A DNA stretch of 64,000 nt, taken from the NCBI GenBank assembly GCA_963746075.1, contig CAVUZY010000007.1, forward strand, positions 50,451-114,450, in the 5' to 3' direction. Source of the stretch: an uncultured Chloroflexia bacterium. Its GTDB lineage: Bacteria > Chloroflexota > Limnocylindria > Limnocylindrales > CSP1-4. The translations under genes were made by a program, and so were the position numbers. Shown here piece by piece: positions 63,491 through 64,000 of this stretch. The notes under the pieces were generated by a model. It was not told the DNA's origin, searched no databases, and saw nothing but the letters and a program-made list of their open reading frames with translations. Position 1 is the first letter of the stretch, and each line of letters opens with the position of its first letter.

Positions 63491-63838
63491 ATGCGCTCGA
63501 TGGCTGTGGTCTGCCTGTTCACCTTGATCATGGCCGCCTGCACGGATGCCCCCACCCCGTCGGTGAGCGTAGCGCCGCCAGGGATCCTCATCATCCAGCC
63601 GGGCGAGAAGGTCCAGATCGGTCCGCCCACCGAAGACCTCAAGGTCGTGATGAGCAACCTGCTGGTCATGGCCGACAACCATGGCAACGACGTCGGATAC
63701 CCGTGGTTCGACGCGACGACCGGGGAGATCGTCGCGTCCGTGGTCACTCCGCGAGGCCGCCAGCTGATCGACGCCGCCCTGATCGGTGCACCGCACCGAT
63801 TCCGGCAGGTGGCCCACGCCATGGGCGACGGACCGTAG
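63491..63838 (+). pseudogene. 3'-truncated lipoprotein gene (copy A), fused tail-to-tail to its paralog
   Basis: Lipobox LIMAAC; homology to the minus-strand copy ends at codon 63818-63820, after which the frame runs into antisense sequence and stops. Confidence 0.7.
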
Positions 63839-64000
63839 CCGATAGGGCGCGGTGATACCCGCGTCTTCGATCAGGCTGCGACCATTCGGCGTCACCACGG
63901 AGAGGACGAGCTCGCCAGTCGTAGCGTCGAATGTCGGATAGCCCAAGTCAACGCCATGGTTCTCGGCCAGGACCAACGCGTTGCTCAATGCGATCTTGAG
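63818..64000 (-). pseudogene. 3'-truncated paralog (copy B), 5' end beyond the window
   Basis: LKIALSNALVLAENHGVDLGYPTFDATTGELVLSVVTPNGRSLIEDAGITAPYRLRSVAHG aligns without gaps to copy A (40/61 identical by hand count). Confidence 0.7.

Follow-up and report, generated by a model that had tools for sequence, protein, structure and literature searches.

How do two related genes come to end against each other, on opposite strands, at one and the same codon, and is the joint between them an assembly product, a working switch or a scar? The window in which they lie, the whole stretch of 64,000 nucleotides that was analysed, is C7:50451-114450 of a 596,721-bp contig; position 64000 is not the contig end, the contig continues 480 kb past the window, and positions in this continuation locus (L004) equal the window coordinate minus 60000. 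Gene A (plus strand) and gene B (minus strand) are homologous over their whole retained length and stand tail to tail, meeting at 63817/63818. The plus frame from 63638 and the minus frame from 64000 align without gaps (42 of 66 residues identical, E = 1e-30), with 40 of 61 residues identical up to and including codon 63818-63820 (GCC/GGC), which is common to both frames, and the symmetry axis of this coding palindrome is 63819. The initial annotation had described these frames and their shared codon, with arms of at least 181 bp and many synonymous differences, and the sequence is as it described. Homology in fact extends further, back to the start codon and lipobox of each gene (A codons 2-115 against B codons 11-126, 58% amino-acid identity, E = 6e-38), which gives arms of ~330-360 bp each (A, 63491-63817; B, 63818-64180), whilst the mature parts share 67% nucleotide identity with a dS of 1.08 and a dN/dS of 0.26. 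The pair was not listed by a DNA-level repeat search of the window because its arms are too diverged, and protein-level comparison was needed to see it. A and B are the only two copies of their family in this genome.

Gene A (63491-63838, plus strand) encodes a truncated paralog of 115 aa, consisting of a signal peptide with the lipobox MAAC followed by the N-subdomain of a pro-region-like fold, and at its 3' end it reads ...RFRQVAH, then six non-native residues (AMGDGP) and a stop. Gene B (minus strand; 63818-64000 in the window, with its start at 64180, L004 4180, beyond it) is a truncated paralog with the lipobox VAAC, whose start codon overlaps the stop of an upstream 163-aa gene, h163 (ATGA). 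It keeps native codons 1-121 and reads ...RLRSVAHG, the last native codon being the Gly at 63820-63818. The B frame then runs on for 133 non-native codons antisense to A (63416-63817, minus strand) up to the first stop, a read-through that is open because the DNA is 71% GC; the resulting ORF is 254 aa, its tail matches no homolog, and all other matches cover at most 49% of the query. Full-length homologs of A and B are 178-210 aa long, typically ~190 aa, and continue for ~70 aa past the VAH motif with the conserved stretch G-A-G-E-L-R-R-I-Q-D-D-A-T-F-L...A-V-Q-V-N-P. Both genes have lost their 3' parts, the C-subdomains, and much as the initial annotation held, the two losses begin no more than one codon apart; its proviso that full-length relatives might end naturally at VAH is answered by this extension, which rules out two naturally short genes that merely overlap. 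The contig was extended and a recombinase search was run, both of which had been suggested at the outset, and the missing 3' halves were not found: tblastn with the A-type and B-type C-subdomains gave no match anywhere in the assembly, an absence that is not absolute in a genome that is 76% complete. No full-length A ortholog above 71% identity is present in the protein collection, and scans of metagenome contigs and of genome contigs returned two loci each.

Codon-by-codon comparison with relatives (L019, L016, L008 and L005) places the joint at 63817-63818, two bases (CG) that either parent could supply. Gene A is native through His109 plus one base, with no match to A-type genes beyond, and B is native through Gly121, which aligns to A codon 110, plus one base, so the two breakpoints differ by one codon and lie no more than 3 nt apart in homologous, family coordinates. 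Microhomology at the joint is limited to these 2 nt (CG), or 3 of 4. A longer, imperfect microhomology of ~15 nt (B tail GVGHL against the native GVAEL of L016, 13/18 nt) was dropped, as the closer reference L019 cuts the joint similarity to 8/15 beyond the 2-nt overlap. The sequences flanking the joint have no common repeat beyond what paralogy gives, and no sigma-70-like promoters or intrinsic terminators were found around it.

The joint could in principle be an artefact of assembly, a misjoin or a chimeric read, and its closeness to the window end is of the kind that invites suspicion. However, another data set yielded an independent Logan contig of 2,774 bp (L015), which matches L004 3055-5828 at 99.82% (5 SNPs, no gaps) and takes in the joint with both its arms. 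The joint is crossed as well by short-read unitigs from three soil runs, at 372 nt (X1, exact match), 151 nt (X2, 1 SNP) and 174 nt (X5, exact match), the depth at the joint being 2-6×. The initial annotation had made its reading depend on reads that span the junction, and such spanning sequence comes from the contig and from all three samples, which refutes a misjoin. The arms are moreover 33% diverged, unlike technical fold-back chimeras, and homologs that include the 94.5%-identical L019 continue ~70 aa past VAH, against the variant in which two natural short genes overlap at their 3' ends; we give the artefact and short-gene readings next to no probability. Alternative joins, which the annotation had also raised, did not appear: the contig and the X1, X2 and X5 unitigs, at 2-6× depth, hold no alternative joins or loose ends at 63817-63820. 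A run search with each arm separately returned matches from the same study only. The joint is real chromosomal DNA, and it is recent. A separate observation on the sister strain represented by L015 is a G>A SNP at 63798, which turns the family-invariant Arg of PHRFR in A into Gln, and the same change makes Ser into Leu in the nonsense tail of B; the Arg to Gln change hints that constraint on A has relaxed.

Pfam scans of A, B and the full-length member P0004 gave no family at E of 0.01-1 or better, and the neighbours of A and B were also blank. Distant phmmer matches to giant Ig_7/YDG-repeat proteins look compositional and were set aside. The S1 protease of L019 (Pfam Trypsin, 30.5 bits against a cut-off of 20.6) aligns through its residues 75-216 to residues 55-189 of P0004 at 44% identity (E = 6e-31). 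The AlphaFold (AF2) model of full-length P0004 has a pLDDT of 89.9 and folds into two similar alpha-beta-beta-alpha-beta subdomains. Its top seven PDB matches in Foldseek are all alpha-lytic protease pro-region chains (2PRO, 3PRO, 4PRO; probability 1.0), with a TM of 0.53-0.63 on target. Strand 112-116 and helix 121-131 of this model are connected by a four-residue linker, and it is there that the joint lies. Judged by alignment and predicted structure, the family consists of lipid-anchored lipoproteins of ~190 aa, whose mature part is homologous to the two-subdomain pro-region found in alpha-lytic-type S1 proteases and stands free of a protease, and the weak resemblance to secreted protease prodomains that the initial annotation had suggested turned out to be correct. 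The alpha-lytic pro-region works in trans as well as in cis, and deletions inside it abolish its function (PMC2289522), from which the N-only remnants A and B are predicted to be probably inactive; it may be that the cell still makes them as lipoproteins, with transcripts that converge and overlap. Intact members of the family may be trans foldases or cell-surface inhibitors. If this is true, whether as a trans foldase or as a surface inhibitor that protects the producer, the pro-region foldase/inhibitor paradigm would extend to separate genes. The family, which matches no Pfam model, is a more useful by-product of this analysis than the scar itself. Family genes, with an S1 protease that carries a homologous pro-region of its own and a small lipoprotein (h163, 160-190 aa) as their neighbours, lie at L019 379-2853, at L004 3818-5400 (window-equivalent 63818-65400) and at L016, L018, L013, L007 and L011.

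The history of the two genes can be read from a close relative. Contig L019 (5,890 bp, NCBI assembly GCA_025491075.1) shares 94.5% DNA identity with L004 3817-5541, and on it the S1 protease (454 aa) is intact, h163 is present and B is full length (P0071, 190 aa). Homology of this contig to ours ends at L004 3817, that is at Gly121 of B plus one base, and past this point our sequence is the antisense of A. The dS between our B and the L019 B is 0.05, whilst the dS of A or B against full-length relatives is 0.63-0.75, itself below that between A and B (1.08). In the tree, A lies inside a clade of full-length genes with 97/94 support and B groups with P0013, P0010 and P0012 (88/91). A topology that unites A and B is 12.9 lnL units worse, and with p = 0.14 in the AU test a sister relationship of A and B is not formally rejected, which leaves the tree undecided, so the order of events is settled by L019 and the dS values instead. 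L016, L018 and L019 keep the h163-B gene pair, in which stop and start overlap, whereas A-type genes instead precede an h163 paralog (L007, L013), and B has its signal peptide, its EVGER motif and its upstream partner h163 in common with full-length B-type genes. By these measures of divergence A and B are shown as long-separate full-length genes, with an old split between them and a recent truncation, in line with the initial annotation, according to which both copies had evolved as genes before they were joined. That the truncation came after this lineage split from that of L019 is a proposal which we make, on a slight balance of probability, as part of our best explanation.

An old split and a recent truncation also bear on the idea that a single, already truncated gene was copied by a fold-back (snap-back) inverted duplication, with the arms diverging later. 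Such priming yields an exactly symmetric joint, and the VAH codons GTGGCCCAC are a quasi-palindrome. Yet B is still full length in L019, a lineage only ~5% diverged from ours, against a 33% DNA difference and a dS of 1.08 between A and B; B keeps the signal peptide, EVGER motif and h163 partner of full-length B-type genes; and the free tree parts A from B by the 12.9 lnL units given above. The intact B of L019 effectively refutes this origin, which we find hardly credible. The initial annotation had further suggested a reversible, shufflon-like switch, that is, a programmed DNA inversion that swaps the C-terminal parts of secreted lipoproteins. The symmetric geometry at a domain boundary and the surface exposure of these lipoproteins speak for it, but the coding-palindrome symmetry need not mean a switch. 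ORF and Pfam scans of ~10 kb on each side of the locus found no recombinase, integrase or transposase, and the genes there are only suf genes, ThiF, a PLP enzyme, JAB, PTE, GntR and TldD/PmbA. No C-terminal cassette occurs in the 76%-complete genome, the arms enclose no segment that could invert and no common repeat flanks the joint beyond paralogy, contigs from four data sets show one arrangement only, and L019 and all other relatives have plain intact genes. A switch is very improbable on this evidence.

The surroundings of the pair are those of an accessory cluster in decay. Divergent from A lies a 345-aa lipoprotein gene (62382-63419, minus strand), orthologs of which adjoin sufS in L005, L011 and L012, and this conserved, sufS-linked neighbour marks A as the resident copy at the site. 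The same follows from L011, which has flanks matching ours (sufS with a lipoprotein gene of 341 aa to one side, and to the other sufU at 93% and moeB at 88%) and holds in the slot between them a full-length family gene on the plus strand, then two small genes. The protease-h163-B module, in contrast, runs from L004 3817 to ~5541 in the opposite orientation to A, and its right-hand boundary (~L004 5541) is a non-homologous joint too; L019 is unlike our genome on both sides of the module, the DNA downstream of its intact B being unrelated. Within the module the S1 protease gene (minus strand) has lost 674 bp relative to L019 (L019 667-1340) with a 3-nt overlap (GAC) at L004 5118-5120 (window-equivalent 65118-65120), a deletion that took out the front half of the catalytic domain along with most of the pro-region and caused a frameshift. 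The independent contig L015 has the same 674-bp deletion, so the gene is a true pseudogene and not an assembly error. Among 25 genomes of the genus the pro-region-like family occurs in only 2, and the whole accessory cluster, the module with its broken protease and both remnants, is decaying. That the protease and both pro-region-like genes are broken together here supports a functional link between them.

Several further features of the region were noted. Divergence from L019 is uneven across L004 3818-5117, with a dS of 0.05 for B, 0.08 for h163 and 0.32 for the C-terminal part of the protease (dN/dS 0.05 in this part), a pattern that suggests a mosaic made by recombination inside 1.7 kb. 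The suf genes do not form one block here: Rrf2-sufC-sufS come first (59200-63419 stretch), then the 345-aa lipoprotein gene on the opposite strand, and sufU and a ThiF-rhodanese gene follow after the decaying island (L004 5719-7587 stretch). The 345-aa lipoprotein gene is fast-evolving, at 48-52% identity to its orthologs against 93% for sufU. In other relatives (L005, L012, L013, L017) a pro-region-like gene is found upstream of Rrf2. Past its intact B, L019 carries ~3 kb without counterpart here (L019 3000-5890), including a gene with a weak Abi_C match, and this stretch may be a small mobile or defence island. At 57173-57800, on the minus strand, a small secreted Ser/Thr-rich protein is encoded upstream of tldD/pmbA.

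There remains the cause of the symmetry. Homologous recombination or homeologous template exchange between inverted copies produces N-C chimeras and an inversion, and an N|N joint cannot come from such exchange, so it must be a non-homologous join. The explanation that we favour, with somewhat better than even confidence, is an illegitimate, hairpin-guided loss of the centre between the two genes in a decaying locus, which left a real chromosomal scar that is neither a switch nor an artefact. Gene A would have been resident beside the sufS-linked 345-aa lipoprotein gene, and B would have belonged to another module (S1 protease, h163, B), oppositely oriented; after the split from the L019 lineage, a non-homologous join with a 2-base overlap would have removed the C-subdomain part of A, the intervening DNA and the C-subdomain part of B, with two N-only remnants left tail to tail. 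The inverted paralogs would have paired as an imperfect hairpin in single-stranded DNA, which would have set the breakpoints within 3 nt, and the distal part of this hairpin would have been lost by slippage across the stem or by central breakage and subsequent end joining; the symmetry may owe something as well to survivorship among breaks that hit the linker between the subdomains. In silico the arms fold as one long imperfect hairpin (-158 vs. -112 kcal/mol, z = -9.1). A Ku gene is present in the genome, which makes end joining plausible, and a search for SbcC gave sub-threshold matches only in this 76%-complete genome. That a hairpin can stimulate the loss of the centre of an interrupted palindrome is well known, as is the processing of such structures in E. 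coli (Darmon et al. 2010, PMC3315005). Against a hairpin in vivo, the arms are ~67-80% identical and the lost spacer, judged from L011, was probably >1 kb; similarity between A-type and B-type DNA has no step at the N/C boundary at which to place the base of the hairpin stem. Taken by itself, the claim that a hairpin or cruciform of convergent paralogs (~70-80% identical, >1 kb apart) guided the centre loss into a symmetric joint is tentative, and we hold it somewhat unlikely. If it is true, inverted gene copies that have diverged this strongly would still be able to guide the symmetric loss of a centre in the genome of a natural bacterium. Among the relatives found, none keeps A and B intact together at this locus, and the pre-deletion arrangement is our reconstruction. 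Of the two origins given in the initial annotation, centre loss between convergent paralogs remains viable; an inversion between tandem paralogs is not supported, as it would leave a reciprocal C|C joint and no C half exists in the 76%-complete assembly.

The same scar could also come from two independent illegitimate breakpoints, for example where a fragment of the B module was captured, or served as a replacement, at a break in A, with symmetry that arose by chance or by survivorship at the short linker, if breaks elsewhere give products that are not tolerated, and we regard this as a genuine possibility that is well short of probable. The joint overlap of only 2 nt is in keeping with it, as are the equally non-homologous right boundary of the module (~L004 5541), with L019 differing on both module sides, and the second small-overlap deletion (674 bp, in the protease) in the same module. 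A location of the joint exactly in the linker that separates strand 112-116 from helix 121-131 is predicted by a survivorship filter and not by hairpin guidance. Random ends in two ~570-nt genes would by our estimate fall within 3 nt in homologous coordinates in ~1% of cases, which weighs against chance, though with very many windows scanned a ~1% coincidence can surface; and the product of B carries a 133-aa nonsense tail, such that a filter for clean domains is not obviously satisfied. As the L019 DNA past the intact B is unrelated to ours, the B module may also have arrived already truncated, through a one-step replacement. Among hairpin guidance, survivorship at the linker and chance as causes of the breakpoint symmetry, we narrowly place the hairpin first. 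On hairpin-guided centre loss as on independent breaks, the feature is a real, slightly curious deletion scar and not a new system.

Set beside known systems, the locus resembles each in part. In shufflons and other invertible C-terminal cassettes, such as R64 Rci/pilV and Mu Gin, the break lies at the boundary between the constant N-terminal and the C-terminal part of a surface protein, in inverted-repeat geometry, as it does here; unlike them, our locus has no recombinase, cassettes, invertible segment or alternative forms. The alpha-lytic protease pro-region of Lysobacter enzymogenes (PDB 2PRO, 3PRO, 4PRO) has the same two-subdomain alpha/beta fold as is modelled for the full-length family, whereas a family member has a gene to itself, complete with signal peptide and lipobox and unfused to a protease, and both copies in this genome keep only the N-subdomain. 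In the nearly precise excision of Tn10, the centre between inverted copies is lost at a 24-bp repeat and a shorter palindromic remnant stays. Compared with Tn10 excision, the arms here are coding paralogs that are 67% identical, not near-identical IS copies, the joint overlap is 2 nt and not a 24-bp repeat, and the prior state and mechanism are inferred. With that excision, and with the deletion of interrupted palindromes in E. coli, our locus shares symmetric breakpoints in both arms, a remnant palindrome and independence from a site-specific recombinase, and it would be a natural example of illegitimate recombination between inverted paralogs that leaves a coding palindrome behind.
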